A DNA stretch of 64,000 nucleotides from a virus (IMGVR_UViG_3300031998_000026:51528-115527), one strand, 5' to 3'. Numbered from the stretch's first letter, positions 25,240 to 49,326 are shown. Numbers and translations are program-made. Notes: a model not told the origin generated them from the sequence alone.

Positions 25240-25463
25240 GCACAGGCTTAATCGTTGCGGTCGTGACGCTTGTCATCGTGGCCGCGATATACATGGCCTA
25301 TACGATGGGCGAGATATCGGAGATGCGCCGAGCATTGGAGCGTATCGAGCGCAGGCAGAAGCTGAGCGACATACCCACGGAAAGGCGGCCAGACATAGAG
25401 GTGCTGCCGTATGAGTCAGTCACCCCACGCATAAATGCGGGGGCTTGCAATAGCCCCGACTGA
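25236..25463 (+). CDS. Small membrane protein with C-terminus replaced by the IscB-element insertion
   Basis: TM helix LIVAVVTLVIVAAIYMAY; the ORF reads into the element left end at ...EVLPYE|SVTPRINAG. Confidence 0.4.
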   Translation: MSTGLIVAVVTLVIVAAIYMAYTMGEISEMRRALERIERRQKLSDIPTERRPDIEVLPYESVTPRINAGACNSPD

Positions 25464-25647
25464 CCAGCCTGAGTGCTTCGGGCACTACGTTGTCCGCGTC
25501 ATGGCACCCCGAGATGCCTCCTCAGTCTCGGGCTCTGCCGCCCGTCATTAAACAGCCCGCAGGGGTGTGGGCAGTGTGGCGGGCACGACAAGCGCGGACA
25601 ACATTGGCGAGAGGAACATTACCGCCCTTCTGGGCGAGGAGGTATTT

Positions 25648-25650
<3 letters not shown>
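25414..25650 (+). ncRNA. IscB omega-RNA scaffold; the guide would be the roughly 16 nt 5' of the left end
   Basis: About 235 nt structured non-coding stretch directly upstream of and overlapping the iscB start, conserved in the iscB-less copy at 11167-11400. Confidence 0.55.
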
Positions 25651-26955
<1,305 letters not shown>

Positions 26956-33155: not shown

Positions 33156-33561
33156 ACGGCCGCTGCTGTTCGGCATGTCCAACGGCGGCGAGTTCGAGCC
33201 GGTCTGCGAGATATCCGATACGTCCCCTTTGTCTAGCGACACGGATGACGGGCCGTACTACGACCCCAGCGTCTTCGACGAGCTCTCGGCCACGGTCGAG
33301 GTCGGCCTCGAGGAGTACGGCGACGCGCTCGCCAAGCTGGGCACGGTGTTCCACGCCACAGGCAGTCAGATACAGCTCATGTTCGATCGCATCGTCCGCG
33401 CGCCGAGGTTCTGGTACATATGGCAGTACAAGTCGCACCCGAAGGGCAGGGGCAGGCGTCGCAGAAGGCCGTCCTGGATGAGGGTGAAGACGGTGCTGCA
33501 CGACGTGGAGGTGGAGTCGAGCGGAGACATCGCGACGTTCAGGGCGGTGATGCCAAGATGA
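33136..33561 (+). CDS. Hypothetical protein
   Basis: 141 aa. Confidence 0.4.
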   Translation: MPEDEVRRPLLFGMSNGGEFEPVCEISDTSPLSSDTDDGPYYDPSVFDELSATVEVGLEEYGDALAKLGTVFHATGSQIQLMFDRIVRAPRFWYIWQYKSHPKGRGRRRRRPSWMRVKTVLHDVEVESSGDIATFRAVMPR

Positions 33562-33908
33562 GCGGCAGGAGGGTGTGCGTCACCGGCGGGCGCGACTTCG
33601 ATGATGCCGCCCTCGTCCGCAAGGCTTTCGACGAGATCGGGCTGCGTGGCGGTGACACCCTCGTGCACGGCTGCTGCAGGGGAGCCGACCTGCTGTGCGA
33701 CCGCATAGCCCGCAACGAGTACGGAGCACGCAGCGAGGCGCACCCTGCCGACTGGTACAGGCACGGAAAGGCCGCAGGGCCAATCAGGAACCGGGAGATG
33801 CTGGGGTCAGGCATCGACGTGCTGCTGGCGTTTCCCGGCGGAAGGGGCACCGAGAACTGCGTTGCCACTGCAATTAGGATGGAAATCGAGGTGAAGAGGT
33901 ATGGATAG
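33558..33908 (+). CDS. SLOG-family / DUF2493-like protein (LOG/DprA-like Rossmann fold)
   Basis: CVTGGRDFDD...VHGCCRGADL...GPIRNREML...AFPGGRGTE. Confidence 0.5.
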   Translation: MSGRRVCVTGGRDFDDAALVRKAFDEIGLRGGDTLVHGCCRGADLLCDRIARNEYGARSEAHPADWYRHGKAAGPIRNREMLGSGIDVLLAFPGGRGTENCVATAIRMEIEVKRYG

Positions 33909-34984: not shown

Positions 34985-35173
34985 ACGAACAAATTTACTG
35001 GTTCTCGCGCACGTTGCGAACGCGTGTGCTACACTTGAAGAACACTGATGCGCCGTAGTATCGAGCATGGTAGTAGCACAGTCGTGCGACTTGGTACGCC
35101 TTTTTGCCATCAGGACTATCCGTTTTTCCAGCGACGAATGCGCCGCTGGATAGTCCTGCGAAAGGCGTGCCTT

Positions 35174-35890
35174 ATGTCAGACAATAGTGTTGTCAACCAT
35201 GGTGGTGTTGACTATAGAAGGGTTATGCGTGGTGGTTACTTCGTCTTGCATCCCATAGACGGAGAGCGTACGGATTACAGCGTGTCGATACCTGAGCATA
35301 GACTTGTTTATGAAATTGCCCATAACAAAAAATTGCCAAGCGACGTACAGGTCCATCATCTCAACCACGACAAATTGGATAATCGAGTCGCTAATCTGAT
35401 AGCAGTTACTCGCGAGGATCATATGCGCATACATGCATATGAGAACAATCATGTCGATCGCATAACTCGGAAGAGGCGTACTGACGACATACTTGCTAAC
35501 CTTGCGACATATGACGGGCAGATATATTACAGGAGGCTCAGGGACGGAAAATACGTGCTCTCACCGATTGTTGACGGGCATATCGATTTTGAAAAGACTG
35601 TATATGAGCACAGACTTGTCTACGAACTCGCCAACGGAATAGAGCTTGACGCAACGACGCGCATAACGCATATCAATGGTGACGATACAGACAATCGAAT
35701 CGAAAACCTCTCAGTTGACAAAACGCATTTTTCGCGGCCAAGCAAAGATGAGCTTAAAGGCTTGATTAAGGGATACACTGACCGCGAAATTGCTGAGAGG
35801 TTCGGGGTACGTAGGCATACCGTATACAAATGGAGAAGGTTCTATGGCTTTCCTCCTGAGAATGGCTATAGGAATACGAACGAGAAGTAG
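35174..35890 (+). CDS. Tandem double-HNH endonuclease with C-terminal HTH (homing-endonuclease-like)
   Basis: Two HNH_3-type motifs EHRLVYEIA...VHHLNHDKLDNRVANL and EHRLVYELANG...ITHINGDDTDNRIENL; C-terminal GYTDREIAERFGVRRHTVYKW. Confidence 0.7.
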   Translation: MSDNSVVNHGGVDYRRVMRGGYFVLHPIDGERTDYSVSIPEHRLVYEIAHNKKLPSDVQVHHLNHDKLDNRVANLIAVTREDHMRIHAYENNHVDRITRKRRTDDILANLATYDGQIYYRRLRDGKYVLSPIVDGHIDFEKTVYEHRLVYELANGIELDATTRITHINGDDTDNRIENLSVDKTHFSRPSKDELKGLIKGYTDREIAERFGVRRHTVYKWRRFYGFPPENGYRNTNEK

Positions 35891-35932: not shown

Positions 35933-37033
35933 ATGCAAGACTTGAAGATATACGCCAAGAACCTCGAGCGGGCGGCTCGGGAGCAGATAGACACGCTCGC
36001 GAGCCTGCCCGCCTTCGAGGGGGCGAAGATAAGGATTATGCCCGACGCGCACGCCGGAGCGGGATGCGTCATAGGGTTCACCGCCGACCTCGGCGACAAG
36101 GTGGTCGCGAACCTGGTGGGGGTAGACATCGGCTGCGGGATGCTCACGGTCAAGCTGGACGGGCGCGTGGACTTCGAGCGTCTCGACAAGGTGATCCGCA
36201 AGGTCGTGCCGAACGGCTTCGGAGTGCACGGCAGGCCGACGTGCGACGTGGCGTCCCTCGGCCTCAGGTGCTTCGACAGCCTCAAGAAGGTGGAGCACCT
36301 CGACAGGTCGATGGGGACACTCGGCGGAGGGAACCACTTCGTCGCTGTCGACGAGGACGCCGATGGCAACCAATACCTCATCATCCACACGGGCTCGCGC
36401 AACCTCGGGCTGCAGGTGGCAAACATCTACCAACGGCTCGGCGAGGAGACGTGCGACGCCGACGTGCCGAGGGACCTCAAGTGGCTTGACGGACAGGATG
36501 CCGATGACTACATGCACGACATGAGGATATGCCAGAGGTGGGCGTGGGAGAACCGCGAGGCCATAGCGAAGGCCATCCTCGTCGGAATCAGGTCGGATGC
36601 AGATGACGAGTTCCAGACCGTCCACAACTACATCGGAGACGACAACGTCATACGAAAGGGAGCCATATCCGCAAAGGGCGGCGAGCGCGTGCTCATACCG
36701 CTCAACATGCGTGACGGCTGCCTAGTCTGCACGGGGCTTGGCAACGTTGACTGGAACGAGTCGGCCCCGCACGGAGCAGGGCGCACCATGAGTCGCAGGA
36801 AAGCCAAGGAGACGCTCGATGTCGAGGACTTCAAGGCCCAGATGCAGGGCGTGTATTCCACGACGATATGCGAGGCGACGCTTGACGAGGCGCCGGACGC
36901 GTACAAGCCCGCACGGGACATCATCGACGCAATAGACGGCGTGACCGTCACCGTCGACGAGCACCTGCGGGAGGTCTACAACTTCAAGAGCACCGACGAG
37001 TCAGGCTGGCGAAGGAGGAAGAAACGCTCTTGA
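35933..37033 (+). CDS. rtcB: RtcB-family RNA 3'-phosphate/5'-OH ligase
   Basis: MPDAHAGAGCVIGF, GTLGGGNHF, HGAGR motifs. Confidence 0.8.
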   Translation: MQDLKIYAKNLERAAREQIDTLASLPAFEGAKIRIMPDAHAGAGCVIGFTADLGDKVVANLVGVDIGCGMLTVKLDGRVDFERLDKVIRKVVPNGFGVHGRPTCDVASLGLRCFDSLKKVEHLDRSMGTLGGGNHFVAVDEDADGNQYLIIHTGSRNLGLQVANIYQRLGEETCDADVPRDLKWLDGQDADDYMHDMRICQRWAWENREAIAKAILVGIRSDADDEFQTVHNYIGDDNVIRKGAISAKGGERVLIPLNMRDGCLVCTGLGNVDWNESAPHGAGRTMSRRKAKETLDVEDFKAQMQGVYSTTICEATLDEAPDAYKPARDIIDAIDGVTVTVDEHLREVYNFKSTDESGWRRRKKRS

Positions 37034-37086
37034 CATAGCGACACCATCGGGCGGTCTTCGGGCCGCCCGTTTCGATTGGGGGATGC

Positions 37087-37323
37087 ATGCGATTAGGCAA
37101 CAAGGACGTCCACATATCCGACGTCTCCCCGACCCTGCATCACGGCATAGAGTCCGAGTGCGAGCACGGGCACGTGTGGTACTCCACGGTCAGGGTGTAC
37201 TGCATAGACGACGGCGAGCACAGGCGATGGCTCGCGACTTGCCCCGTGTGCAGGCGGCAGACGGAGACGTGCGCGACTTACCAGGAGCCATTGGAAAGGG
37301 CGGCGATGGAGTGGTGGACATAG
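37087..37323 (+). CDS. Small Zn-ribbon protein
   Basis: CEHGH...CPVCRRQ. Confidence 0.35.
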   Translation: MRLGNKDVHISDVSPTLHHGIESECEHGHVWYSTVRVYCIDDGEHRRWLATCPVCRRQTETCATYQEPLERAAMEWWT

Positions 37324-37385
37324 GCACTATAGCTAGCAACATCATAGGGCGGCCTTCGGGCCACCGCTTTTTCTAAGGAGGGACA

Positions 37386-38504
37386 ATGAATCCGAATCGC
37401 AAGATGGCGACGATGAGGAAGGTGGACGCGATTACGCCCATCGACGGCGCAGACAGGATAGAGTGCGCGCACATCGGTGGATGGACGTGCGTCGTGGGCA
37501 AGGGGGACTTCGGACCCGGCGACCTCTGCGTGTACTACGAGGTCGACTCATTTTTGCCCACATCGGACCCGAGGTACGCGCAGTTCGCCGAGCGTGGCGA
37601 GAAGGTCATGACCATAAACGGCAACCCAACGAGAGGCCACGTGCTCAGGACAATCAAGCTCAGGGGCCAGATAAGCCAGGGCCTGCTGATGAGGCCACGG
37701 GACGTGCTGCCAGAGTCCGTTCCCGAGCATGCCTATCGGCTCATGTACGAGCGCAGGGCGAGGCTCGACGGCATATGCGGCGTGCGCGAGTACCACCCCG
37801 ACCAGAACTCACTTGCCGCCGGGTTCATAGGGAAGTACGACCCATACGTGGCACCCAGGACGGGATGCGAGCGCATCCAGAACATAGACCAGGACGTGTT
37901 CGACCTAATCAAGCGGTGCGTCTACTTCACGAGCGTGAAGGTGGACGGCACGAGCATAACGCTTGTCAACGACTCCCGACACGGCCGCATAAGGGCGTTC
38001 TCGCACAACAACGAGTTCGACGTGGGCGAGGGCCAGGGCAAGCTGGTCATGGAGACTGCAGCGCGGCAATGTCTCGACGTGTTCCTCGACGAGAACCCGG
38101 ACATAGCCATACAAGCCGAGCTATGCGGCCCAAAAATCGGGGGCAACACGCTCAGACTCAATGACTACAAGCTGTTTGTGTTCTCCATGTGGGACATGGT
38201 CGGCAGGCGATACCTGAACCCGTATCTGACGTACAGCCATGCCATAGCGAACTCGACGACTCCATGTCTCGACCTCGACCTCGACCAGTTCGACATGCCG
38301 CAGGACCTCATCGAGTGGACGAACTCCCTTCGCGGGTCGGTCACGAAGGATGCGCTCGACGAGGGGATAGTCGTGCACGTCATGGACACGGGCGACCTGT
38401 CAAAGGACGAGCAGACGATGCTTCGCAATGTGCTGGGCGAGCAGATGCAGATGAAGAGCGTCTCGGCGGCGTTCCTGCTCAAGAAGGCGAAGAAGGCCAT
38501 ATAG
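37386..38504 (+). CDS. ATP-dependent RNA ligase (covalent nucleotidyltransferase superfamily)
   Basis: Motif I KVDGTS (adenylation lysine), motif IV-like EGIVVHV; adjacent to rtcB. Confidence 0.6.
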   Translation: MNPNRKMATMRKVDAITPIDGADRIECAHIGGWTCVVGKGDFGPGDLCVYYEVDSFLPTSDPRYAQFAERGEKVMTINGNPTRGHVLRTIKLRGQISQGLLMRPRDVLPESVPEHAYRLMYERRARLDGICGVREYHPDQNSLAAGFIGKYDPYVAPRTGCERIQNIDQDVFDLIKRCVYFTSVKVDGTSITLVNDSRHGRIRAFSHNNEFDVGEGQGKLVMETAARQCLDVFLDENPDIAIQAELCGPKIGGNTLRLNDYKLFVFSMWDMVGRRYLNPYLTYSHAIANSTTPCLDLDLDQFDMPQDLIEWTNSLRGSVTKDALDEGIVVHVMDTGDLSKDEQTMLRNVLGEQMQMKSVSAAFLLKKAKKAI

Positions 38505-38586
38505 CTAACGACATTACGGCGGCCTTCGGGCCGCCGATTCTTTAAGGAGGATGGCATGAACGAGAAACGCAGCGGAGGATTGAGGG

Positions 38587-39450
38587 ATGCCTAGGAAACC
38601 TATAGACGTATCTGGACAACGTTTTGGGATGCTTGTAGCCAAGGAATACATAGGACTTGGAAACTGGATATGCGAGTGCGACTGCGGCAATGAGACTGTC
38701 GCTCGCAGCACTGCGCTCATAGGCGGAAAAAGGCTTTCATGCGGATGCAATCATCAAGAAGCGCTTCGGCGCGCAAGAGTTGACAGAACCGGGAAGCGAT
38801 ACGGGAGACTCACAGCCATCAGACATGTCGGAAAGCAGAACTGGCTGTGTCGATGCGATTGTGGCAAAGATGTAGTGGTAGATGGAAGAAACCTAACGTG
38901 CGGACACACGAAGTCATGCGGATGTCTAAAGCTCGAAAAATCAAAAGAGCTCAATAGAACACACGGATGTTCAAAGAGTAGGCTCTATCGCGTATGGAAA
39001 GGCATGCGAAAGAGATGCCTAAACAAAAGCGAACCGGCTTATAAGAACTATGGCGGCAGAGGAATCAAGATATGCGATGAGTGGCTTGACGACTATCAAG
39101 CGTTCCGCAATTGGGCCATGGAGCACGGGTATGACGAAAACGCACCCTATGGAGAGTGCACTATCGACAGGATTGACGTAAACGGCAATTACGAGCCAAG
39201 CAATTGCCGGTTCATAACTCTTGGCGAGCAATCGAGAAATACCAGACATTGCAGACAGGTTGAGGTGGTCGACTCTAACAACGACGTCATCGCAACATAT
39301 GGCACGGTCACTGAAGCAGCCGAACGCACAGGCATAAGCAAGTCGTCAATCTATCGAACATGCACTGGCAGACAAAAGAGCACACACGGACTGCGAATGC
39401 GATATAGATCCCGCATTCATGCTCAAGAAGTCGAAGAAGGGATAGGATAA
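38587..39450 (+). CDS. HNH/NUMOD-type homing-endonuclease-like protein (paralog 3 of 3)
   Basis: QRFGMLVAKEYIGLGNWICECDCGNE..., YKNYGGRGIKICDEW, IDRIDVNGNYEPSNCRF, C-terminal YGTVTEAAERTG. Confidence 0.6.
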   Translation: MPRKPIDVSGQRFGMLVAKEYIGLGNWICECDCGNETVARSTALIGGKRLSCGCNHQEALRRARVDRTGKRYGRLTAIRHVGKQNWLCRCDCGKDVVVDGRNLTCGHTKSCGCLKLEKSKELNRTHGCSKSRLYRVWKGMRKRCLNKSEPAYKNYGGRGIKICDEWLDDYQAFRNWAMEHGYDENAPYGECTIDRIDVNGNYEPSNCRFITLGEQSRNTRHCRQVEVVDSNNDVIATYGTVTEAAERTGISKSSIYRTCTGRQKSTHGLRMRYRSRIHAQEVEEGIG

Positions 39451-40472
39451 TGGGCAAAATAACCAGAAAGATACGCATCCCGACGGGATACCTGTTCACC
39501 GGGGAGTACTCCCACGGCGAGCTCGAGACTCTGTCCATAGGCGACTACGGCAAGCGGCACAACATAAAGGCCGACTTCCTCGGGTTCCACGACGACGTGG
39601 AGAAGGTAAGCAACGGCAGGACGGAGCCGCTGTCAGAGAAGTGGGTGGTCACGCTCTCGACCCAGTACGGCTGTCCGATGCGATGCGCGTTCTGCGACTG
39701 CCCCAAGGTGCCGTTCGGTGGCAACGCGACCATCGGAGACCTCAAGGCCCAGCTGTACAACGCGCTGGCGTGCTTCCCGGACGAGCATTACGCCGGCAGA
39801 CTCAACGTCCACTTCGCGCGCATGGGAGAGCCGTCGCTCAACGACTCGAACGTCATCGGCTTCTCCCAGTGGATGGCGACGCACAAGCGTGACATCAAGC
39901 ACGACACCGGGGTCTCGGTTGACGTGCTGCATCCCGTGTTCACAACGATGTGCCCGAAGAGCCTCGGACGGCAGGGGCTCAAGTCCGTGCTCGGGCAATG
40001 GTGCACCGTCAAGAACGAGACGTACGCAGGGTGCGCCGGCCTACAGCTATCGGTGAACTCCACGAGCGACGCCCAGAGGGACGAGATGTTCGGCGGGATG
40101 GCGATGTCTCTCGAGGAGATAGCGGACGTATGCTCGTTCCTGCCCGAGCCGCTCGGCAGGAAGTACTGCCTGAACTTCGCGCTCGCGGACGGGTACGAGG
40201 TCGACGTCGACCGTCTCAGGGAGCTGTTCGCCCCGACCGACTTCATGGTCAAGATCACGCCCATCCACAACAACGACGCCTGCAGGGAGTCAGGCATCGA
40301 GACGAGCCACGGCTACACGGACTCGACGTGGTACCGCAAGGCGGAGGAGGACCTCAAGTCTGTCGGCTTCGACGTGCTCGTGTTCGTCCCGTCCATGGAC
40401 GAGGAGGACGGGCTGGTGACGTGCGGCAACCTCGTGCTCTCCGGGTCTGAGGTCAGGAACGAAGTGCTTTAG
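39450..40472 (+). CDS. Radical-SAM enzyme, RlmN/Cfr-like RNA methyltransferase candidate
   Basis: CPMRCAFCDC (CxxxCxxC) and a downstream MGEP motif (ARMGEPSLN) as in RlmN; 340 aa. Confidence 0.5.
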   Translation: MGKITRKIRIPTGYLFTGEYSHGELETLSIGDYGKRHNIKADFLGFHDDVEKVSNGRTEPLSEKWVVTLSTQYGCPMRCAFCDCPKVPFGGNATIGDLKAQLYNALACFPDEHYAGRLNVHFARMGEPSLNDSNVIGFSQWMATHKRDIKHDTGVSVDVLHPVFTTMCPKSLGRQGLKSVLGQWCTVKNETYAGCAGLQLSVNSTSDAQRDEMFGGMAMSLEEIADVCSFLPEPLGRKYCLNFALADGYEVDVDRLRELFAPTDFMVKITPIHNNDACRESGIETSHGYTDSTWYRKAEEDLKSVGFDVLVFVPSMDEEDGLVTCGNLVLSGSEVRNEVL

Positions 40473-40520
40473 CTAGCGACATTTCGGCGGCCCTTCGGGG
40501 CCGCCTTGTTAGGGGGAAAC

Positions 40521-40796
40521 ATGGGAAACAAGCTCAGGGACGTGCTCTTCCCGACTCGCGAGCAAGCCATGGCGACACGCAAGAGGCTGCTTGGCCTTTT
40601 CGGCTTGCCGGACAGGCACGTCAGGTACCTGTGCGCCGCCGAGTTCCAAGGAATGCAAATCATACACGAGGGGTACGCAGAACAGCACACTCCATGCAGC
40701 TTCTCCGAGGGTCCCGGCGACTGGTACTGCTTCCGATTCGGAAATGGTGGAAGGACATACAGGATCACAGTCGAGGAGGTCGAGGAGGTCGACTAG
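40521..40796 (+). CDS. Hypothetical protein
   Basis: 91 aa. Confidence 0.4.
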   Translation: MGNKLRDVLFPTREQAMATRKRLLGLFGLPDRHVRYLCAAEFQGMQIIHEGYAEQHTPCSFSEGPGDWYCFRFGNGGRTYRITVEEVEEVD

Positions 40797-40797
40797 C

Positions 40798-41103
40798 ATG
40801 CACATATGCGCCGAATGCCTCGACTTCATGGAGTGTGGCGACTGGGACATCTGCTGCAGGCAGCAGGTCAGGCGCCTCACCTACGAGTACTGCGAGGCGT
40901 GCGACACGTTTCGCGAGGGACGCGAGATAAGGCCGGTCATAGTCACTGGGGAGGCGGTTGCCTTCAGGCCGAACGGCGAGGTCACGTTCGACGAGTGCGT
41001 CGCCAAGGCCGAGGAGCTCATCGCCGATGGCTACGAGGACGTGAAGATATGGGACGACCGCAAGGAGCAGCTGTACCCGCTGCTGTGGAGGGAAGGACAA
41101 TGA
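40798..41103 (+). CDS. Hypothetical Cys-rich protein
   Basis: MHICAECLDFMECGDWDICC. Confidence 0.4.
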   Translation: MHICAECLDFMECGDWDICCRQQVRRLTYEYCEACDTFREGREIRPVIVTGEAVAFRPNGEVTFDECVAKAEELIADGYEDVKIWDDRKEQLYPLLWREGQ

Positions 41104-41462
41104 GCATCGTGGAAGGAGAGGCGCCTGTCACGGTCGAGGTCTCCAATACCTGTATGCCGACATATTCCCATGTGCTGTTCGACACCGTCACGAGCACTAC
41201 GTACAGGCCCGTGCAACGACATAAGAGCCTCATACGCTGCGAGTACTGCGACATGTCCTACGACGGCGACGAGCACGAGAACTGCCCTCACTGCATGGCC
41301 CCGAGGCCGAGGGCAAGGCCGAGACCAGCCGTAGAGACGCAAGACAGCGCCGTCTTCTACAGGGATAACGTGGCGTACTTCACTTTCAGGGATGGGATAC
41401 TCACGAACAACGAGGCGAGGCAGATGGTTCCGGAACCGTATGGGACCGTCGACAGGAGGTGA
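41100..41462 (+). CDS. Hypothetical protein with Zn ribbon
   Basis: CEYCD...CPHC. Confidence 0.4.
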   Translation: MSIVEGEAPVTVEVSNTCMPTYSHVLFDTVTSTTYRPVQRHKSLIRCEYCDMSYDGDEHENCPHCMAPRPRARPRPAVETQDSAVFYRDNVAYFTFRDGILTNNEARQMVPEPYGTVDRR

Positions 41463-41704
41463 TTGCCATGGCTGAGAAGCTATACGTCCCCGTGTTCCAA
41501 TTTTTCATGAACGACGAGCTGGGCTTTGCGTACGGCACGACCGGAAGGGCGTACCTCACGTACGACGAGGCGAGGCGGTCCCTCCTTGACGGGGGCTGGG
41601 AGCTCCGCCGCTTCGAGGACGTCGTGTACGACGAGGTGCGGGAGTTCTTCTGGAGGGGCGACGAATCGGCAAAGATAGAGGAGGTGGTGGTCGTAGATGG
41701 CTGA
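41459..41704 (+). CDS. Hypothetical protein
   Basis: 81 aa. Confidence 0.4.
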   Translation: MIAMAEKLYVPVFQFFMNDELGFAYGTTGRAYLTYDEARRSLLDGGWELRRFEDVVYDEVREFFWRGDESAKIEEVVVVDG

Positions 41705-42080
41705 GGGAAAGGCCTACGTGGCATACGAGGTCGTCTACAAGGCATGGGACGATCCCGGCATACCGATTATACATACGTTCGTGTTCTCGACGTTCGACAA
41801 GGCCAAGGCCTTCGTAGAGTCGAGAACCATAGACGTCTGCAAGGTAAAGACGATCGACCCGCGCTATCGCGACGGAGAATGGGAGCGTTGGGAGGAGTGC
41901 GAGGACTTCTACGAAATGGAGGACGAGTGCGAGACCGCCCACTTCAAGCTGTCCCACGAGGAGGAGTCGATGTACTCGAGCCACTACTTCACCTACCCCG
42001 TCGTCGATAAGGACGGTGATGCGGTCGAGAGAGGCGTCACGCACTGGTACGTCGATGTGTGCGAGGTGGATGCCGAATGA
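41697..42080 (+). CDS. Hypothetical protein
   Basis: 127 aa. Confidence 0.4.
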   Translation: MAEGKAYVAYEVVYKAWDDPGIPIIHTFVFSTFDKAKAFVESRTIDVCKVKTIDPRYRDGEWERWEECEDFYEMEDECETAHFKLSHEEESMYSSHYFTYPVVDKDGDAVERGVTHWYVDVCEVDAE

Positions 42081-42646
42081 TCTGGTTCACGGCGGACACA
42101 CACCTCGGGCACGGGAACATAATCATGCAGGCTGGCAGGCCGTTCGAGAGCGTTGGGCAGATGGACGACCATATAATCGGCGTCATAAACGACATGGTCA
42201 CCCCCGGAGACGAGCTGTACGTCCTCGGTGACTTCGCGTTTCGAGTCCCAAGGGAGGACGTGCGGCGCTACAGGTGGCTCATCAGGTGCAACAACGTCTA
42301 TCTGGTTCGGGGCAACCACGACGTCCTGTGGCACGGCGACTCCCCCTTCCAGGCGGAGCACGGGTACTTCGACTGCCTGCACTCTCCGAGGCCGATGAGG
42401 CACCGCATAGTCATGTGCCATTACCCGATACTGAGCTGGCGGTCCATGGATCACGGGTCCATACACCTGCACGGCCACATACACGCAAAGGCCGACTACA
42501 ACCTCAGAAACAGGGAGGATGGCGTGTTCAGGTACGACGTGGGGGTCGAGGCCAACGGATACATGCCCGTCAGCCTAGACCAGATAACCGAGTTCTTCGA
42601 CGGCGTGGAGCCACGGAGGGCTCACCACAAGGAGGAGGGTCTGTGA
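42077..42646 (+). CDS. Calcineurin-like metallophosphoesterase
   Basis: FTADTHLGH, GDFAFR, GNHD, HGHIH metal-binding motifs. Confidence 0.7.
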   Translation: MIWFTADTHLGHGNIIMQAGRPFESVGQMDDHIIGVINDMVTPGDELYVLGDFAFRVPREDVRRYRWLIRCNNVYLVRGNHDVLWHGDSPFQAEHGYFDCLHSPRPMRHRIVMCHYPILSWRSMDHGSIHLHGHIHAKADYNLRNREDGVFRYDVGVEANGYMPVSLDQITEFFDGVEPRRAHHKEEGL

Positions 42647-42649
42647 AGG

Positions 42650-42952
42650 TTGGAAGGGTCGATGGAGAAGAACGATGAGGTCATTTCGATGAGCATCGAG
42701 CGCGACGGACATGTGTACGTCAGCCTTGAGTTTATCGGCAGAATCCTTAGGAACGCGATATGCGTGTGCCACGCCGTCAGGAGTGTCAAGGTCCTTTCCG
42801 CGCATGACCTGTGGGACATCTATTCAAAGATATGCGAAACGGTCGGTGTGGAGAACGACGTGTCGGAACCGCCGAACGTCAGGCTCATGGGCTCAGGATG
42901 GCCTGACGCGTTTGGGTGGTACGGCTTCTGCAAGTGGTGGGAGGAAGTATGA
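42650..42952 (+). CDS. Hypothetical protein
   Basis: 100 aa. Confidence 0.35.
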   Translation: MEGSMEKNDEVISMSIERDGHVYVSLEFIGRILRNAICVCHAVRSVKVLSAHDLWDIYSKICETVGVENDVSEPPNVRLMGSGWPDAFGWYGFCKWWEEV

Positions 42953-43326
42953 GACACTCAACGCCCGAGGAGAACGATTTCTACGAGGCATGGCTCACGA
43001 GCGAGTCCGTGCCGCTGTTCACGGAGGAGGAGCTGATGAAGGACGCACCGACGAAGAGGGAGAGGCGCGTCACCCGGAAGTGCGACTGCGGGTGCTGTAT
43101 GCTGGTGTTCGAGAAGACCGTCTGGGACGACGGCATGACTTGGTACGACGTGTCGGTGCAGGACAACCGCTACGACCATGACGCCAACGGTATCCTGAAC
43201 CGCATCAGGAACGCGCTCAAGGTGCTGTTCGGCAAGACTGTGTCTTGGAACGACGTGTTCTTTGAGAACCCCGAGGACTTCGACGAGCTTCTGTGGGAGC
43301 TGGACGAGCTGCGTGAGTGGTCTTAG
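42949..43326 (+). CDS. Hypothetical protein
   Basis: 125 aa. Confidence 0.4.
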   Translation: MRHSTPEENDFYEAWLTSESVPLFTEEELMKDAPTKRERRVTRKCDCGCCMLVFEKTVWDDGMTWYDVSVQDNRYDHDANGILNRIRNALKVLFGKTVSWNDVFFENPEDFDELLWELDELREWS

Positions 43327-43432
43327 CTAGCGACATGAGGGCGGCAGGGGAATTATGGCAAGGCCGTAGCCATAACTACACGTTATGGTACACTTGTGCG
43401 TACGGTAGAACACACGTACGTCAGGAGGCAGG

Positions 43433-43936
43433 ATGCCAGACAAGGTAGCAATCGCTTCGCCGTGGATGACGTTCGCACGGGAGGTGCATGCGCTGTTCAG
43501 GTACGACCCCGAGGTGGAGGTCGACTTCGACAACGACGCGCCCGAGCTGACGCTCTATGTGGCGAACGCGAGCAAGGCGGACGCGCTCGGCAAGCTCGTG
43601 CCCACCGAGAGGCAGTTCGGCAACGTCACGCTCAGGATAACGGTCGTCCCCGCCAACGAGAACGAGTCCGAGGTGGAGCTGTTCCGTCGCGCCTTCGCGG
43701 GCAACGACGCCGTCGTGGACATACAGACGGTGCAGGACATGTTCGGCTCGGAGGTCTCCTACGTGGAGTTCGCGCCTAAGGTCGTGTCGTTTCCCAACGA
43801 CAACGTCGGAGACTTCAACGGGTACAGCCACACGCTGTACGAGACCATCGCAAAGGAGCTCTTCGCGCCCAGTGCGGGCACTCGCCTCTGCACTGCGCTG
43901 CTTGTGGAGGACGCTCCTCTCGGCGAGTGGCCTTAG
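43433..43936 (+). CDS. Hypothetical protein
   Basis: 167 aa. Confidence 0.45.
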   Translation: MPDKVAIASPWMTFAREVHALFRYDPEVEVDFDNDAPELTLYVANASKADALGKLVPTERQFGNVTLRITVVPANENESEVELFRRAFAGNDAVVDIQTVQDMFGSEVSYVEFAPKVVSFPNDNVGDFNGYSHTLYETIAKELFAPSAGTRLCTALLVEDAPLGEWP

Positions 43937-43946
43937 GAAGTAGCAC

Positions 43947-44019
43947 GGGGATGTAGCTCAGTTGGAAGAGCGCCGGACTGTCTCTCCGGAGGTCGTGGGA
44001 TCGAGGCCCATCATCCTCG
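43947..44019 (+). tRNA. tRNA-Asp (GTC); CCA encoded at 44020-44022
   Basis: Hand-folded: acceptor GGGGATG/CATCCTC, D arm GCTC/GAGC, anticodon stem CCGGA/TCCGG with loop CTGTCTC, T arm GTGGG/CCCAT. Confidence 0.6.
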
Positions 44020-44023
44020 CCAT

Positions 44024-44097
44024 TGGGGCGTAGCTCAGTCGGTATGAGCAGGGGCCTGTTAAGCCTCGTGTCGCTGGTTCGATCCCAGCCGTCCCAG
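44024..44097 (+). tRNA. tRNA-Asn (GTT); CCA encoded
   Basis: Acceptor TGGGGCG/CGTCCCA, anticodon loop CTGTTAA, T arm GCTGG-TTCGATC-CCAGC. Confidence 0.65.
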
Positions 44098-44101
44098 CCA
44101 T

Positions 44102-44173
44102 CGCGGAGTACAGTAGCGGTCACTGGCCGGATTCATGCTCCGGTGCACGTGGGTTCGAATCCCACCTCCGCCA
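44102..44173 (+). tRNA. tRNA-Met (CAT), elongator-type; CCA encoded
   Basis: Anticodon stem CCGGA/TCCGG with loop TTCATGC; T arm GTGGG-TTCGAAT-CCCAC; no GGG/CCC initiator stem signature. Confidence 0.6.
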
Positions 44174-44264
44174 CCAGACACATCCCGCCCCCTGAGGCGG
44201 TGGCCGTTGCGCGGGCCGGAAATCAGCGCCCTCTTGCGGAGTCAGGGGAACCCGCATGCACAAT

Positions 44265-44337
44265 GGGTCGTTAGCTCAGCTGGGAGAGCAGTTGGCTCTT
44301 AACCATCAGGTCCTGGGTTCGAGTCCCAGACGACCCA
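44265..44337 (+). tRNA. tRNA-Lys (CTT); CCA encoded
   Basis: Acceptor GGGTCGT/ACGACCC, anticodon loop CTCTTAA, T arm CTGGG-TTCGAGT-CCCAG. Confidence 0.65.
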
Positions 44338-44341
44338 CCAT

Positions 44342-44413
44342 ACTCCGTTAGCTCATCGGGTAGAGCAGTGGGCTTTTAACCCTCAGAGCAGAGTTCGAGC
44401 CTCTGGCGGAGTA
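44342..44413 (+). tRNA. tRNA-Lys (TTT); CCA encoded
   Basis: Acceptor ACTCCGT/GCGGAGT, anticodon loop CTTTTAA, T arm CAGAG-TTCGAGC-CTCTG. Confidence 0.65.
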
Positions 44414-44424
44414 CCAGGCAATAC

Positions 44425-44498
44425 GGAGTCCGTAGCACAACGGTTTAGTGCGCTGGGTTGTGGCCCCGGATACGAAGGTTCGACTCCTTTCGGACTCC
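44425..44498 (+). tRNA. tRNA-His (GTG) with G-1
   Basis: G-1 opposite C73, acceptor GAGTCCG/CGGACTC, anticodon loop TTGTGGC, T arm GAAGG-TTCGACT-CCTTT. Confidence 0.6.
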
Positions 44499-44505
44499 CA
44501 TCCAT

Positions 44506-44579
44506 TTCCCCGTAGTTCAATCCGGCAGAACGCCTGACTCTGGTTCAGGAGGTACCTTGTTCGACTCAAGGCGGGGAAG
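44506..44579 (+). tRNA. tRNA-Gln (CTG); CCA encoded
   Basis: Acceptor TTCCCCG/CGGGGAA, anticodon stem CCTGA/TCAGG with loop CTCTGGT, T arm CCTTG-TTCGACT-CAAGG. Confidence 0.65.
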
Positions 44580-44768
44580 CCAGAGAAATACCGCGCGATC
44601 GCACTAGTACCTGTCCGGAGGGGAAACTGCGACTGGGGCCAGCCACACTCTGAGCTCGCGCGTCCATACAGGAGGTCGTAGTAAAGGTGAATACGACGCG
44701 TTGCAACAGGGGGGACGCTTCCGCAACACGTAGATGCAAGGTTCGAGTCCTTGCCCTCCCAACCCAAC

Positions 44769-44840
44769 AGGCTCTTGGTGTCAAAGGAAGCACGCTGGTC
44801 TCCAAAACCAGAGGAGGGGGATCGATACCTCCAGGGCCTG
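44769..44840 (+). tRNA. tRNA-Trp (CCA); CCA encoded
   Basis: Acceptor AGGCTCT/AGGGCCT, anticodon stem CTGGT/ACCAG with loop CTCCAAA, T arm GGGGG-ATCGATA-CCTCC. Confidence 0.55.
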
Positions 44841-44908
44841 CCATAGAAGTCACTTGAGGGGCGTGGCCTTCGCGGCTGCGTCCCTCTTCCGTACGAAGGA
44901 AGGAGTCA

Positions 44909-47950: not shown

Positions 47951-49099
47951 TTACGCAAACCTACGCTTGCCGTTTGATTCCTGCTTCGTAGGGCGCTCCA
48001 CCTCGACGGCTTCGACGCCCTCCACAGGCATGAGTTCGGGATAGTTCGCCATCCCTACGTTCAGTATGTTTATCGCCGCGTTCACGTCGCGGTCGATGAC
48101 GGCCCCGCAGTCTGGGCACTCGTAAGTGCGCTCGGAGAGCGGCATGTCGCGTACGCACCCGCAGTTTGAGCACGTCTTACTGCTCGGGTACCAGCGGTCT
48201 ATCCTGCCGACCCTCGCCTTGTACTCGAACTGGCTCGCCATCGTCGCCAACGACGCATCGGCTATCGACTTCGCCAGCTTGTGGTTCGAGCGCATGCCCT
48301 TGACGTTGAGATCCTCCAAGAACACGACGCCGTACCTGCGCACGACGTCCGTCGTGGCCTTGTGGATGTAGTCCGCCCTCATGCATGCCGTGCGATACTG
48401 GAACTTGGCGAGCCTGTCCTTCGCCTTGCGCCAGTTCTTGGAACCCTTCTTCTTGCGCGACAGATCCCGCTGCAGGTGCCTCATACGCCTCTCGCGCCTC
48501 CGATACCAGCGAGGATTCTGGACCACCGTACCGTCCGAGAGCGCCATGAGTACGTGGCAACCGAGGTCGATGCCCACGGCGGCTTGGCTTTCGCCCGCCG
48601 TGTCCGGCACCTCGCACGAGATGGCCGCGAACCACATGTTCGCCCTCTTGGATACGGTCACGTTGTATATCTTGGTGCAGTCTTGGTATCTCAGCGGCTC
48701 TGCCATCTTCAGTGTGAGTCCCTTGGGCAACCTGAGGTACCTGCCTTCCACCCTGACGGCCGAGCCGTCGATGCGGAATGAGTCTCTAACGCCCTTCTTG
48801 TGGAACCTCGGGTGCTTCGTGTTGCCCCTGAAGAACGACTTGAACCCCTTGTCGAGATCCTGTATCGCCGCCTCTCCTATCCACTTGGAGTACTCGTACA
48901 TCCACGGGAACTCCGCCTTCTTGCGGGCGTTGAACTTCTTCTTTATCGAATAGTAGTTGTGTCTGACGCCGTTGTCGTAGTCCTCGTTCCACATGCCGAG
49001 GCAGAGGTTGTATGCCGTCCGAGAGAACCCGCAGCAACCCCTCAGATACGACTCCTGCACGTTGTTGGGATATATTCGCGTCTTGAACGTCCGATTCAT
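47951..49099 (-). CDS. tnpB: TnpB RNA-guided nuclease (RuvC plus Zn finger)
   Basis: N-terminus MNRTFKTRIYPN; RuvC-I AVGIDLG; RuvC-II VVFLEDLNVKGM; Zn finger CSNCGCV...CPDCG; RuvC-III DRDVNAAINI. Confidence 0.85.
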   Translation of the reverse strand: MNRTFKTRIYPNNVQESYLRGCCGFSRTAYNLCLGMWNEDYDNGVRHNYYSIKKKFNARKKAEFPWMYEYSKWIGEAAIQDLDKGFKSFFRGNTKHPRFHKKGVRDSFRIDGSAVRVEGRYLRLPKGLTLKMAEPLRYQDCTKIYNVTVSKRANMWFAAISCEVPDTAGESQAAVGIDLGCHVLMALSDGTVVQNPRWYRRRERRMRHLQRDLSRKKKGSKNWRKAKDRLAKFQYRTACMRADYIHKATTDVVRRYGVVFLEDLNVKGMRSNHKLAKSIADASLATMASQFEYKARVGRIDRWYPSSKTCSNCGCVRDMPLSERTYECPDCGAVIDRDVNAAINILNVGMANYPELMPVEGVEAVEVERPTKQESNGKRRFA

Positions 49100-49326
49100 C
49101 GTTGCTCCTCGAGCAACTCGTCGTCGAGCCTCCATTCTATTGTGTCCCTCACCTTCTCGAGCCTCAGGTATTCGGACACTGGCCTGTCGTACACGAACCG
49201 CACGTCGTAGTCCGAATCCTCGCTCGCAAAGCCCCAGCAGCGGCTCCCGGACTCGATTGCGAGCACCAGGTTGACGTTCTTCTCCCTCTCGACGGACTCG
49301 AGCTCACGGATTATTGTCTCACGCAT
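49096..49326 (-). CDS. Minimal nucleotidyltransferase (MNT-like) fragment
   Basis: LVLAIESGSRCWGFASEDSDYDVRFVY is a Pol-beta-type GS...DxD motif; only 76 aa; stop abuts the tnpB start. Confidence 0.45.
   Translation of the reverse strand: MRETIIRELESVEREKNVNLVLAIESGSRCWGFASEDSDYDVRFVYDRPVSEYLRLEKVRDTIEWRLDDELLEEQR

Follow-up and report, generated by a model that had tools for sequence, protein, structure and literature searches.

A phage accessory island with two predicted RNA ligases, a tRNA array and a radical-SAM enzyme related to RlmN/Cfr

Gene content and setting of the island

Analysis of a 64,000-nucleotide stretch of viral DNA (IMGVR_UViG_3300031998_000026:51528-115527, hereafter the window) located RtcB, an Rnl5-type ligase, a radical-SAM enzyme, a metallophosphoesterase and eight tRNA genes at 35933-44843, all on the + strand, and every element named in an initial annotation of this DNA proved to be present in its place, whereas the functional reading given with that annotation holds only in part. 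We consider it probable that this region is a counter-defence or host-takeover accessory island composed of separable cassettes rather than one dedicated pathway. RNA ligases and spare tRNAs side by side are a known phage route past host tRNA attack. The module is an ordinary variant of the known phage RNA-repair kit, and its unusual part is the radical-SAM family. The island sits in the early, co-directional arm of a tailed phage of about 60% GC, and the phage context comprises RecE, RecT, SSB, a replication initiator, DnaC, a DNA methylase and the beta clamp. The features are as follows.

2613-2688: further tRNA, Arg(CCT), outside the island array
35048-35890, + strand: free-standing homing endonuclease gene (HNH_3 and HTH), directly upstream of RtcB
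35933-37033, + strand: predicted RtcB, short form, 366 aa, a 3'-P/2',3'>P and 5'-OH RNA ligase (PF01139, phrog_1075)
37048-37069, + strand: terminator-like hairpin after RtcB, with a 9-bp GC stem, UUCG loop and T-rich tail
37087-37323, + strand: Cys-rich ORF, 78 aa, the upstream partner of the ligase
37386-38504, + strand: predicted Rnl5-type ATP-dependent RNA ligase, N-terminal OB and nucleotidyltransferase domains (PF21189, PF09414)
38472-38496, + strand: 25-nt direct repeat, left copy (the ligase 3' end)
38587-39450, + strand: inserted homing-endonuclease-like gene, between the ligase and radical-SAM genes
39416-39440, + strand: 25-nt direct repeat, right copy
39450-40472, + strand: predicted radical-SAM enzyme of RlmN/Cfr fold (phrog_24834)
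40591-41103, + strand: Cys-rich ORF, 170 aa, downstream of the radical-SAM gene
42059-42646, + strand: predicted binuclear metallophosphoesterase, 195 aa (phrog_547, 9.7e-42)
43433-43936, + strand: ORF, 167 aa, abutting the tRNA array on its 5' side
43947-44582, + strand: seven tRNAs, Asp(GTC), Asn(GTT), Met(CAT), Lys(CTT), Lys(TTT), His(GTG) and Gln(CTG) (ARAGORN)
44671-44760, + strand: tRNA-like element, sub-threshold, with a 19-22 nt insertion in the anticodon arm
44769-44843, + strand: tRNA-Trp(CCA) (ARAGORN; Rfam, 45 bits)

The two RNA ligases

The predicted RtcB matched PF01139 with 190.8 bits (cut-off, 27; E value, 6.6e-56) and phrog_1075 with an E value of 2e-122, and it scored below the NCBIfam equivalog cut-offs. 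Its D65/C68, GGGNHF, HTGSRNLG and PHGAGR motifs align to Pyrococcus horikoshii RtcB (PH1602), with metal-binding and GMP-histidine motifs as counterparts, and the alignment shows the predicted catalytic motifs to be intact, in support of the original identification. As a member of this family, RtcB would directly reseal breaks with 2',3'-cyclic-P/5'-OH ends, the kind that metal-independent anticodon nucleases and ribotoxins leave behind. Among 80 related viral RtcB loci, 46 had tRNAs within 10 kb, 32 had at least three tRNAs, and none had the radical-SAM gene.

A second, chemically different RNA ligase near the tRNA array had also been named correctly. This protein matched PF21189 (the OB domain; 2.4e-27), PF09414 (3.1e-09) and the Naegleria gruberi RNA ligase NgrRnl (5cot; 1.1e-35). 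Like the Rnl5 enzymes of N. gruberi and Deinococcus radiodurans, it is predicted to have an OB domain followed by a nucleotidyltransferase domain, and the lysine of its KVDGTS motif aligns to the KlDGsS motif of 5cot, showing that the putative catalytic lysine of motif I is present and intact. It differs from them in its score against TIGR02306 (98 bits, under the equivalog cut-off of 151) and in its C-terminal ~90 residues, which do not align to NgrRnl. Judging from its family, Rnl5 would seal 3'-OH/5'-P nicks in duplex RNA and would thus cover a second end chemistry without a kinase; such ends are made by metal-dependent nucleases. Because Rnl5 enzymes favour nicked duplexes, the role of this ligase at single-stranded anticodon-loop breaks is uncertain. 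The 78-aa Cys-rich ORF upstream had no Pfam or PHROG match and is 91% identical in the closest relative (L120), where it holds the same position.

A TROVE/Ro60-vWA gene lies in L120 exactly at the position of RtcB, beside the same ligase, so that TROVE/Ro60 replaces both the HNH gene and RtcB, and 49 nt around the hairpin after RtcB are kept where the swap occurs. This arrangement resembles the bacterial Rsr(Ro)-Y RNA-RtcB operons, but no Y RNA was found in L120 or the window, where weak YrlA-like matches only overlapped true tRNAs. Another strong GC hairpin is located 3' of the ligase gene, and the two hairpins weaken the earlier proposal that the region is a single operon.

Insertion between the ligase and radical-SAM genes

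A homing-endonuclease gene had been reported as inserted between the ligase and radical-SAM genes, and this was borne out by L120 and by the 25-nt repeat. In L120, which lacks the inserted ORF, the radical-SAM gene directly follows the Rnl5 gene, with 4 nt from the ligase stop to the radical-SAM start. The inserted DNA of the window (roughly 38497-39412, 0.9 kb) lies between the two repeat copies, which match at 23 of 25 bases. The inserted gene has two paralogues elsewhere in the window, at 9920-10771 and 15683-16444, with 40-44% identity; its GC3 is 0.50, and it gave weak I-HmuI NUMOD-like and HTH matches. At the sequence level, these comparisons show that the ORF at 38587-39450 is a true insertion splitting a tight ligase/radical-SAM gene pair. 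Apart from the window, the two genes were found adjacent in a single close relative; the more distant Rnl5 relatives L121-L127 carry no radical-SAM gene, and none lies downstream in Rnl5 relatives at 57-68% identity.

Comparison with known RNA-repair systems

Jumbo phages are known to carry RNA-repair/tRNA sets consisting of RtcB and/or Rnl1/Rnl2-type ligases, tRNA arrays and phosphoesterases (PMC7824862). The initial annotation had taken the combination in the window for an apparently undescribed operon, but phage kits of RtcB, ATP-dependent ligases, phosphoesterases and tRNAs have been reviewed already. The window is similar to these kits in that RtcB, an ATP-dependent RNA ligase, a phosphoesterase and a tRNA array occur in one phage, and in the proposed role, which is to reverse or bypass host tRNA attack. 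It differs in that its ATP ligase is predicted to be of the Rnl5 type, not Rnl1 or Rnl2, in that no polynucleotide kinase (5'-kinase), 2H or HAD phosphatase, RlaP or CCA-adding enzyme was detected in the module, and in its embedded RlmN-like radical-SAM gene; the term radical SAM has no occurrence in the review.

The module also shares heal-and-seal logic with T4 Pnkp + Rnl1 and with bacterial Pnkp/Hen1, but it has no kinase-phosphatase of the Pnkp kind. T4 Pnkp and Rnl1 repair tRNA-Lys, countering PrrC, and in bacterial Pnkp/Hen1 a methyltransferase is coupled to the ligase so that the repaired RNA resists re-cleavage. For the pairing of a ligase with a methylase, Pnkp/Hen1 offers the closest precedent. 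However, the candidate methylase of the window is a radical-SAM enzyme with a putative carbon target and not a 2'-O-methyltransferase, and its coupling to the ligase is limited to one shallow lineage.

tRNA genes and codon usage

ARAGORN finds eight tRNA genes at 43947-44843, as originally counted, and the Rfam scores concur (45-66 bits, all over the gathering score; 52-66 for the first seven). In the proposed counter-defence island, this array would replace depleted tRNAs and also serve the codon preferences of the phage. According to the phage's own codon counts, the most used Arg codon is AGG, which matches tRNA-Arg(CCT), and the most used Ile codon is ATA, possibly read by the CAT tRNA, a candidate tRNA-Ile2 with G37 and a C1xC72 mismatch. 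Each of the remaining phage tRNAs reads the codon used most for its amino acid, except tRNA-Lys(TTT), which reads the rare AAA (53 uses vs 528 for AAG). Some of the tRNA set, if not all of it, can be accounted for by codon usage with no role in defence.

These observations bear on a housekeeping explanation, in which the tRNAs match codon usage while RtcB and Rnl5 would act in the maturation of RNA or in its general quality control, for example in tRNA processing or Ro-type surveillance. We regard it as possible though somewhat unlikely. The heavy use of AGG and ATA, the Ro/TROVE quality-control gene in RtcB's place in L120 and the tRNA-like element within the array are in its favour, but tRNA-Lys(TTT) and the pyrimidine at position 37 of tRNA-Asp (U37) are not; anticodon-loop variants of this kind have been reported in nuclease-evading phage tRNAs. 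The housekeeping and counter-defence explanations are not mutually exclusive.

The tRNA-like element at 44671-44760 and tRNA-Arg(CCT) at 2613-2688 were additional to those annotated initially. The former reached 21.7 bits against the Rfam tRNA model (gathering score, 29) and had a folding z-score of 0.01; ARAGORN called it only when introns were allowed or the threshold was relaxed, giving conflicting anticodons.

The radical-SAM enzyme

The radical-SAM enzyme contains the CxxxCxxC motif (C75/C79/C82) and an MGEP motif, and its sequence matches in the PDB were RlmN and Cfr only. RlmN/Cfr, and not PFL activase or QueE, was also its best fold match. RlmN and Cfr are class A radical-SAM methyltransferases that act on 23S rRNA A2503 and tRNA A37. 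The phage enzyme has in common with them CxxxCxxC, the GEP SAM-binding motif, a K-I-x-x-I-P strand and a C-terminal TCGN, which aligns to the RlmN ACGQ bearing the methyl-carrier C355. In contrast, the position of RlmN C118 (Cfr C105) is an invariant Thr in the family, the canonical resolving cysteine being absent, and a beta-rich segment made up of the first ~60 residues lies outside the RlmN-aligned region. With these two differences and 28 bits against TIGR00048 (cut-off, 290), an RlmN orthologue was rejected. The RlmN/Cfr-type assignment made initially thus stands for the fold and motifs but not for orthology.

More than 7,000 hits to the family were obtained, nearly all of them viral, compared with only 31 from a set of 185,579 species genomes, the majority of these 31 lying in MAG bins; the contexts inspected were phage or prophage. 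Its sequence places the enzyme in a virus-specific family of very large size that is sister to RlmN/Cfr. RlmN-type chemistry is most likely, in which SAM would methylate C325, and a 5'-deoxyadenosyl radical would then activate the methyl-cysteine, which would add to an sp2 carbon. In a rough split, RNA is the leading candidate substrate, though short of an even chance, followed closely by a substrate of some other kind, then by an adenine or pyridine nucleotide, with DNA well behind.

Genomic neighbours of the radical-SAM family

The family has no obligate partner gene, and ~70% of its loci showed no gene of either RNA repair or NAD+ salvage within the flanks that were searched. The commonest close neighbours were NAD+ salvage genes (NMNAT, NrtR/NUDIX, NAPRTase, NadE or isochorismatase), present within 1.5 kb in 17 of 95 non-redundant loci vs 0 of 80 control loci, the latter being phylogenetically narrow. 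RNA-repair genes lay within 10 kb in about 10 of the 95. RtcB, Rnl5, Thg1-like or TROVE genes within 10 kb gave 11 hits with L120 excluded, against ~0.8 expected from gene density in isolate phage genomes, which are a collection other than the loci counted. As the radical-SAM gene recurs beside both NAD+ salvage and RNA-repair genes, these results suggest a stand-alone cassette across phages with a role against abortive-infection-type defences. The earlier view of the enzyme as a part of RNA repair is weakened in that most loci of the family have no RNA-repair gene and NAD+ salvage genes are the commonest neighbours.

An unlikely explanation is that the enzyme acts in nucleotide/NAD+ metabolism on a small molecule (for instance a nucleotide or nucleoside of adenine or pyridine type), its place beside RNA ligases being due solely to the clustering of counter-defence cassettes. 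In 8 loci an NMNAT-like gene is 38-138 nt away from the radical-SAM gene, and an NrtR-like NUDIX gene comes next in several of them; in one locus (L070) the radical-SAM gene is followed, in this order, by isochorismatase, NAPRTase, NMNAT and NadE. Distant cellular relatives are fused to isochorismatase, to a pyridine-nucleotide-disulphide reductase, or to a QueT-type transporter component together with an MTA/SAH nucleosidase. However, these fused relatives (E values of 1e-30 to 1e-73) are without the N-terminal GDYGK motif conserved in the phage family, and the nucleosidase may merely clear the by-products SAH and 5'-deoxyadenosine. Around the radical-SAM gene of the window itself, no gene of NAD+ salvage was recognised; a YAcAr SLOG protein 5.5 kb upstream is all that the region offers in this respect. 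We know of no NAD+ salvage route that requires a radical-SAM step, and the papers on NARP1-3 that were examined mention none.

Metallophosphoesterase and the integrated-operon explanation

In one integrated RNA-repair operon, as proposed initially, the phosphoesterase would heal the 2',3'-cyclic phosphate, the ligases would seal, and the RlmN-like enzyme would methylate an adenine of repaired or phage tRNA, restoring or blocking a nuclease determinant; bacterial Pnkp/Hen1 with its "repair with immunity" would be the analogue. The ancestral 4-nt spacing between the ligase gene and the radical-SAM gene, RlmN/Cfr as the closest fold and the conserved methyl-carrier Cys are consistent with this, as are the L111 gene order (metallophosphoesterase, 237-aa ORF, radical SAM, RtcB) and, right beside the radical-SAM gene in other lineages, TROVE (L007, +528 nt) or a Thg1-like gene (L009, -282 nt). 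We nevertheless find this explanation distinctly improbable, given the Thr at C118 and unaligned N-terminus, the neighbourhoods described above, the 0/80 RtcB loci and the Rnl5 relatives.

The metallophosphoesterase also argues against it. With DxH, GD, GNHD and GHxH motifs, this protein is predicted to be a catalytically intact enzyme common in phages, scoring 21.1 bits against Pfam Metallophos, just below the cut-off of 21.5. Its best PDB match is aq_1665 (1xm7), a protein of unknown function, with a weak match to PdeM (TIGR04123, 1.1e-5). The calcineurin-like identity given initially holds, but the healing role gains no support; as the module has no detected 5'-kinase and the nearest solved relative of the phosphoesterase has no assigned function, the proposed set of a healing enzyme and two sealing ligases is incomplete. 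In addition, position 37 is U or G rather than A in the tRNAs for Asp, His and Gln that the phage encodes, so they cannot receive RlmN-type m2A37, which weakens the suggestion that the enzyme modifies tRNA.

Post-replicative modification of phage DNA by the radical-SAM enzyme, such as adenine C-methylation as anti-restriction, is very unlikely: many loci lie in replication/recombination modules and near DNA methyltransferases (for example Bacteroides phage Versailles and L032) and M6 gp53 is a precedent for a phage radical-SAM enzyme acting on DNA (PMC8989533), but DNA methyltransferases were about 8 of 149 nearest neighbours, by rough estimate no commoner than phage early regions would lead one to expect, M6 gp53 is similar to spore photoproduct lyase and belongs to a dedicated hypermodification cluster absent here, and the nearest structural relatives of the enzyme act on RNA.

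Other genes of the island

The 167-aa ORF had no Pfam, PHROG or PADLOC match and no IMG/VR relatives were found; its GC3 is high (0.88). The 170-aa Cys-rich ORF, with no Pfam match, has a counterpart in L120, also 3' of the radical-SAM gene and 88% identical over 99 aa. The HNH_3 homing endonuclease gene 5' of RtcB, missing from the initial annotation and absent from L120, matched PF13392 at 6.5e-21 and has a GC3 of 0.49 vs about 0.85 in its neighbours.

Gene Content and Setting of the Island

The window represents the early arm, mostly on the + strand, of a tailed phage or prophage with approximately 60% GC, and its real genes have a GC3 of approximately 0.8–0.9. RecE-like and RecT-like proteins, SSB, a replication initiator, a DnaC-like loader, a DNA methyltransferase, a PAPS-reductase-like protein, and a beta clamp are encoded 5' of the island, which has the following features.

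35048–35890, + strand: HNH_3/HTH homing endonuclease gene (GC3 0.49)
35933–37033, + strand: RtcB gene (PF01139)
37048–37069, + strand: 9-bp GC hairpin with a UUCG loop, 3' of RtcB
37087–37323, + strand: Cys-rich ORF of 78 aa
37386–38504, + strand: Rnl5-type RNA ligase gene (PF21189 and PF09414)
38517–38536, + strand: second hairpin, 8-bp all-GC stem with a UUCG loop
38587–39450, + strand: homing-endonuclease-like ORF (GC3 0.50)
39450–40472, + strand: radical-SAM gene (phrog_24834)
Between the radical-SAM and metallophosphoesterase genes, + strand: several small ORFs without a family match
42059–42646, + strand: metallophosphoesterase gene (phrog_547)
Between the metallophosphoesterase and tRNA genes, + strand: three ORFs with no family given
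43947–44843, + strand: eight tRNA genes (Rfam and ARAGORN)

Every particular of the gene and tRNA inventory drawn up in the initial annotation was borne out by motif, profile, and tRNA searches. No DNA nearly identical to the 8.9-kb island was found among 50,697 phage records, and a PADLOC scan of ten island proteins gave no match. A YAcAr/YspA SLOG-family protein (33420–33908, + strand; PF10686, 1.1e-12) is encoded 2 kb 5' of RtcB. For this family, processing or binding of NAD+/ADP-ribose-derived nucleotides has been predicted in published work, and the protein may belong with the counter-defence cassettes of the island.

RNA Ligases and Metallophosphoesterase

RtcB ligases join 3'-P or 2',3'>P ends to 5'-OH ends. 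The RtcB domain of the island protein scored 190.8 bits against a Pfam gathering score of 27, and its motifs vDIgCGm, GgGNHF, HTGSRnLG, and sapHGAGR aligned with the corresponding motifs of Pyrococcus horikoshii PH1602. The PH1602 residues covered in this way were metal-binding D95/C98, N202/H203, and H234 and GMP-accepting H404, while the equivalent of H329 falls outside the aligned stretches. The protein scored below the curated equivalogs (PRK09588, 119 bits vs. 407; PrfH-associated TIGR03073, 96 vs. 272) and represents a divergent short phage subfamily of 366 aa (phrog_1075). Of the 80 IMG/VR loci with the highest similarity to the window RtcB, 46 had tRNAs within 10 kb of the gene and 32 had at least three, so tRNA arrays beside RtcB are common. 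In the viral locus L116 (MT835481.1, 10001–12136), a related phage RtcB matched as two pieces approximately 0.9 kb apart, which suggests an intron, intein, or endonuclease insertion inside the gene.

The second ligase was composed of an N-terminal PHA02142 OB domain (PF21189, residues 7–102) followed by an RNA_ligase nucleotidyltransferase domain (PF09414, residues 182–334), and it matched the Naegleria gruberi RNA ligase 5cot at 1.1e-35. Its catalytic lysine is present, as svKVDGtS (motif I, KxDG) aligned with tvKlDGsS of 5cot. It did not reach the TIGR02306 equivalog cut-off of 151 (98.2 bits). Rnl5 ligases seal 3'-OH/5'-P nicks, preferentially in duplexes. Breaks made by metal-independent nucleases would thus fall to RtcB and those made by metal-dependent nucleases to the Rnl5-type enzyme, with no end-healing enzyme required. 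This two-ligase reading fits the data, because no ORF between 33136 and 45761 had a kinase-like Pfam or PHROG match indicative of a polynucleotide 5'-kinase. In contrast, heal-and-seal systems such as T4 Pnkp/Rnl1 and Pnkp/Hen1 encode a kinase together with the ligase.

The metallophosphoesterase retained the motifs DTHLGH, LGDF, GNHD, and GHIH in its translation and matched phrog_547 at 9.7e-42, with a borderline Pfam score (21.1 bits vs. 21.5). Its PDB matches were Aquifex aq_1665, the best and of unknown function, and two more hypothetical proteins; the sole curated hint was a weak NCBIfam match to the DNA-ligase-associated nuclease PdeM. No characterised RNA end-healing phosphoesterase was found among its PDB or NCBIfam matches. 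The 2',3'-cyclic phosphate healing role first proposed for this protein is conjecture.

Mobile Insertion and Cassette Exchange

The closest relative found was L120, a 6.3-kb metagenome contig. It carries, in order, the 78-aa ORF (91% identical), the ligase gene (82%), a 4-nt spacer, the radical-SAM gene (93%), and a 170-aa ORF (88%). The 0.9 kb with the endonuclease-like ORF (38587–39450) is missing from L120, and its flanking genes are intact. In the window, the same 0.9 kb lies between copies of a 25-nt repeat that matches the ligase 3' end, and the ligase C-terminus is thereby preserved. The segment is a mobile insertion with a putative endonuclease, because it is absent from L120, is flanked by the repeat, and has two paralogues elsewhere in the window; its description in the initial annotation as an inserted gene therefore stands.

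The three homing-endonuclease-like paralogues (9920–10771, 15683–16444, and 38587–39450, all + strand) are 40–44% identical, with a GC3 of approximately 0.46–0.50 vs. approximately 0.85 in the genome, and their homologues are scattered over other viral loci. Together with the HNH_3 gene at 35048–35890, the window has at least four such mobile genes. The hairpin at 38517–38536 lies 3' of the ligase gene, just inside the inserted segment, and closely resembles the one that follows RtcB; the mobile element may bring along a terminator or RNA-stability element of its own.

At the place of the HNH and RtcB genes of the window, L120 has a TROVE/Ro60-vWA gene (106–1593). The point of exchange coincides with the conserved hairpin at window 37048–37069, and from these alignments RNA-repair or surveillance cassettes have evidently been swapped at a spot 5' of the ligase gene. 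A search for Y RNA in L120 and five other Rnl5 loci found none, and in the window only weak YrlA matches were obtained, all of which overlapped true tRNAs. The pairing of the ligase and radical-SAM genes is tight but evolutionarily shallow, because the more distant ligase relatives L121–L127 (47–68% identity) have no radical-SAM gene adjoining the ligase.

tRNA Genes and Codon Usage

The eight tRNA genes scored 45–66 bits against the Rfam gathering score of 29, and ARAGORN concurred; a further tRNA, Arg-CCT, is located at 2613–2688. Lys, Asp, Asn, and His tRNAs are classic targets of anticodon nucleases. All four are included in the island set, Lys with two genes. Codon usage may account for the set instead of, or as well as, anticodon-nuclease counter-defence. 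Among the coding genes of the window of at least 100 aa, AGG is the commonest Arg codon (n = 464) and ATA the commonest Ile codon (245 vs. 236 for ATC), despite a GC content of 60% and a GC3 of approximately 0.85. Apart from these two amino acids, most of the tRNAs match the commonest codon of their amino acid.

Three elements of the array had unusual features. The tRNA-Asp(GTC) at 43947–44022 (+ strand) has an unusual pyrimidine, U37. The CAT tRNA at 44102–44176 (+ strand) has G37 and a C1xC72 mismatch and may, judging from these positions, be an initiator-like tRNA or tRNA-Ile2, not an elongator Met tRNA. A tRNA-like element at 44671–44760 (+ strand) combines a canonical T arm with an acceptor stem of only 5 bp and an anticodon-arm insertion of 19–22 nt; it fell below the Rfam threshold, and the programs conflicted on its anticodon (GCA, GCC, or CAA). 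This element may be a decoy, a tRNA in decay, or a tRNA that bears an intron and adjoins an RtcB gene. As an intron-containing substrate for splicing by RtcB it was rejected, being sub-threshold, with conflicting anticodons and a fold no stabler than that of shuffled sequence.

Sequence and Fold of the Radical-SAM Enzyme

The radical-SAM protein had no Pfam match, and its matches to RlmN models were weak and confined to residues 62–146 (TIGR00048, 28.4 bits vs. a cut-off of 290). It matched phrog_24834, a family of unknown function, at 3.6e-106. The partial barrel of the protein is most similar to that of RlmN/Cfr, and its cluster motif is CxxxCxxC. In the fold comparison, the RlmN-like methyltransferase 6fz6 (22.4) and Cfr (16.9) ranked above LipA (14.6), PFL activase (13.6), and QueE (10.6). 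RlmN/Cfr is therefore the best fold match rather than PFL activase or QueE, in agreement with the RlmN-like label first given to this enzyme.

A profile alignment with a partly verified sequence of E. coli RlmN gave 96% probability over residues 58–337. The invariant C325 (TCGN) aligned with the methyl-carrier C355 of RlmN (aaCGq), and the wider family keeps CG[NQ]; C325 is thus a candidate methyl-carrier cysteine. RlmN and Cfr have two catalytic cysteines, whereas this family is without one of them: the second, located N-terminal to the cluster motif (C118 in RlmN and C105 in Cfr), aligns with an invariant T68. C240 and C278, which are invariant in the close subfamily, were considered as a relocated resolving cysteine or an auxiliary-cluster site. 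This idea was weakened, because Thr and Ala take their places in relatives at E ~1e-100, so that they are not a general substitute for C118. The N-terminal ~60 residues form a conserved beta-rich segment outside the RlmN-aligned region. On the basis of fold and motifs, the family is a sister of the class A radical-SAM methyltransferases and not a strict member.

Distribution and Neighbours of the Radical-SAM Family

More than 7,000 homologous clusters were found across phages from very different bins, many of them approximately 60% identical to the query. Clustering at 50% gave 120 representatives at E ≤ 1e-30 and 1,224 at E ≤ 1e-3. The family occurred in four of 50,697 isolate phage records (best match Bacteroides phage Versailles, 51%) and in 31 of 185,579 species genomes, mostly MAG bins resembling phage contigs; the contexts inspected were phage or prophage. 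The window protein had no close relative in GTDB genomes, Pfam and NCBIfam have no model for the family, and no description of it was found in the literature searched. The family is novel at the family level.

Neighbourhoods were compared in a set of 95 non-redundant radical-SAM loci. Clustering of neighbours by BLAST had suggested that the gene has no conserved partner; this was overturned by a Pfam census, which caught divergent NMNAT and NUDIX proteins.

Most frequent Pfam families among the 149 nearest same-strand neighbours (≥150 aa) of radical-SAM genes
CTP_transf_like (NMNAT-type): 10 neighbours
NUDIX: 7 neighbours
C5 DNA methylase: 6 neighbours
Citrate_ly_lig: 5 neighbours
NrtR winged-helix domain: 4 neighbours
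AAA_25: 4 neighbours
AraR_C: 4 neighbours
NAD synthase: 3 neighbours
NAPRTase: 2 neighbours

The NMNAT and NrtR identities were upheld by comparison with solved structures. An NAD+ salvage gene was located within 1.5 kb of the radical-SAM gene in 17 of the 95 loci, compared with none of 80 RtcB-centred controls. Locus L070 has a full Preiss-Handler set (isochorismatase, NAPRTase, NMNAT, and NadE) directly 3' of its radical-SAM gene. Strings of radical SAM, NMNAT, and NrtR-like NUDIX recur among loci L070, L054, L010, L084, L015, L087–L089, L094–L096, L098, and L100. None of the papers found on phage NAD+ reconstitution mentions a radical-SAM component.

RNA-repair genes formed a second group of neighbours. 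Within 10 kb of radical-SAM genes, RtcB was found in five loci, a Thg1-like gene, whose identity was confirmed, in four, TROVE in two, and Rnl5 in two. Immediate neighbours were RtcB in locus L111 (+257 nt), a Thg1-like gene in L009 (−282 nt), TROVE in L007 (+528 nt), and Rnl5 in L120, the last of which was left out of the statistics as a locus found through its ligase. The 11 RNA-repair genes observed within 10 kb, vs. approximately 0.8 expected, correspond to an approximately 13-fold enrichment, which is suggestive, since the background was crude (gene density in isolate phages). Roughly 70% of the loci had neither an NAD+ salvage nor an RNA-repair neighbour in the flanks searched, and none of the 80 RtcB loci contained the radical-SAM gene.

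Distant cellular relatives (E 1e-30 to 1e-73) include several fusions, represented by P0136, P0150 (L129), P0142, P0170, P0225, P0240 (L130), and P0218. One, a chromosomal gene of a Bacilli MAG, joins a QueT-type ECF transporter component, the radical-SAM domain, and an MTA/SAH nucleosidase. Others join the radical-SAM domain to an isochorismatase (Elusimicrobiota) or to a pyridine-nucleotide-disulphide reductase. By analogy with class A methylases, the nucleosidase fusion would suit an enzyme yielding both SAH and 5'-deoxyadenosine. From the transporter and isochorismatase fusions, small-molecule substrates may be suspected for at least those branches.

Possible Roles of the Radical-SAM Enzyme and the Island

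The island is best read as a cluster of independent counter-defence cassettes, namely RNA sealing, tRNA supply, and the radical-SAM enzyme. It is possible, though on the doubtful side, that the radical-SAM enzyme represents a new virus-specific class-A-like branch with a single cysteine and without an RlmN-type N-terminal domain, serving thousands of uncultivated phages as a stand-alone counter-defence enzyme beside NAD+ reconstitution and RNA-repair cassettes. Such an enzyme might act on tRNA, rRNA, or a nucleotide by C-methylating an adenine (or pyridine) ring, and the methylation would stop a host abortive-infection enzyme from cleaving, depleting, or sensing its target.

As first proposed, the enzyme may methylate tRNA, thereby restoring or blocking a determinant for nucleases; Pnkp/Hen1 offers a precedent. 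This proposal is not favoured, because the Asp, His, and Gln tRNAs of the phage, whose E. coli counterparts are substrates of RlmN, have U37 or G37, NAD+ genes are the commonest neighbours of the family, and the defining catalytic residue (C118 of RlmN) is missing. The module is a real but ordinary variant of an RNA-repair and tRNA kit known from phages. The undescribed, integrated RNA-repair operon of the initial annotation was not established.

With its RNA ligases and tRNAs, the island adds a further, modestly interesting case to a strategy already known in phages. The nearest relatives of the radical-SAM family, Cfr and RlmN, are involved in antibiotic resistance and ribosome modification, and the family is almost absent from cultured phages and cellular genomes. 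NAD+ salvage and RNA repair, which both recur beside it, are established counter-defence functions. Its size, viral restriction, missing cysteine, and recurrent NAD+ and RNA-repair neighbours, taken together, make this family a concrete candidate, amenable to testing, for an undescribed counter-defence activity of phages and for new radical-SAM chemistry.

Other Mobile Elements in the Window

Two strong HEARO RNAs (RF02033) were detected on the + strand at 25415–25622 (175.9 bits) and 11167–11376 (141.9 bits). The first lies directly 5' of, and overlaps the start of, a gene encoding a 462-aa RRXRR and HNH protein (25567–26955, + strand), and the two are predicted to form an IscB-type OMEGA nuclease with its guide RNA in a phage genome. 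No full-length IscB ORF adjoined the copy at 11167–11376. A TnpB gene (OrfB_IS605, Cas12f1-like TNB, and HTH; 47951–49135, − strand) is located where the GC skew and gene strand flip, and in three further viral loci (L051, L053, and L074) TnpB homologues were found close to the radical-SAM gene.
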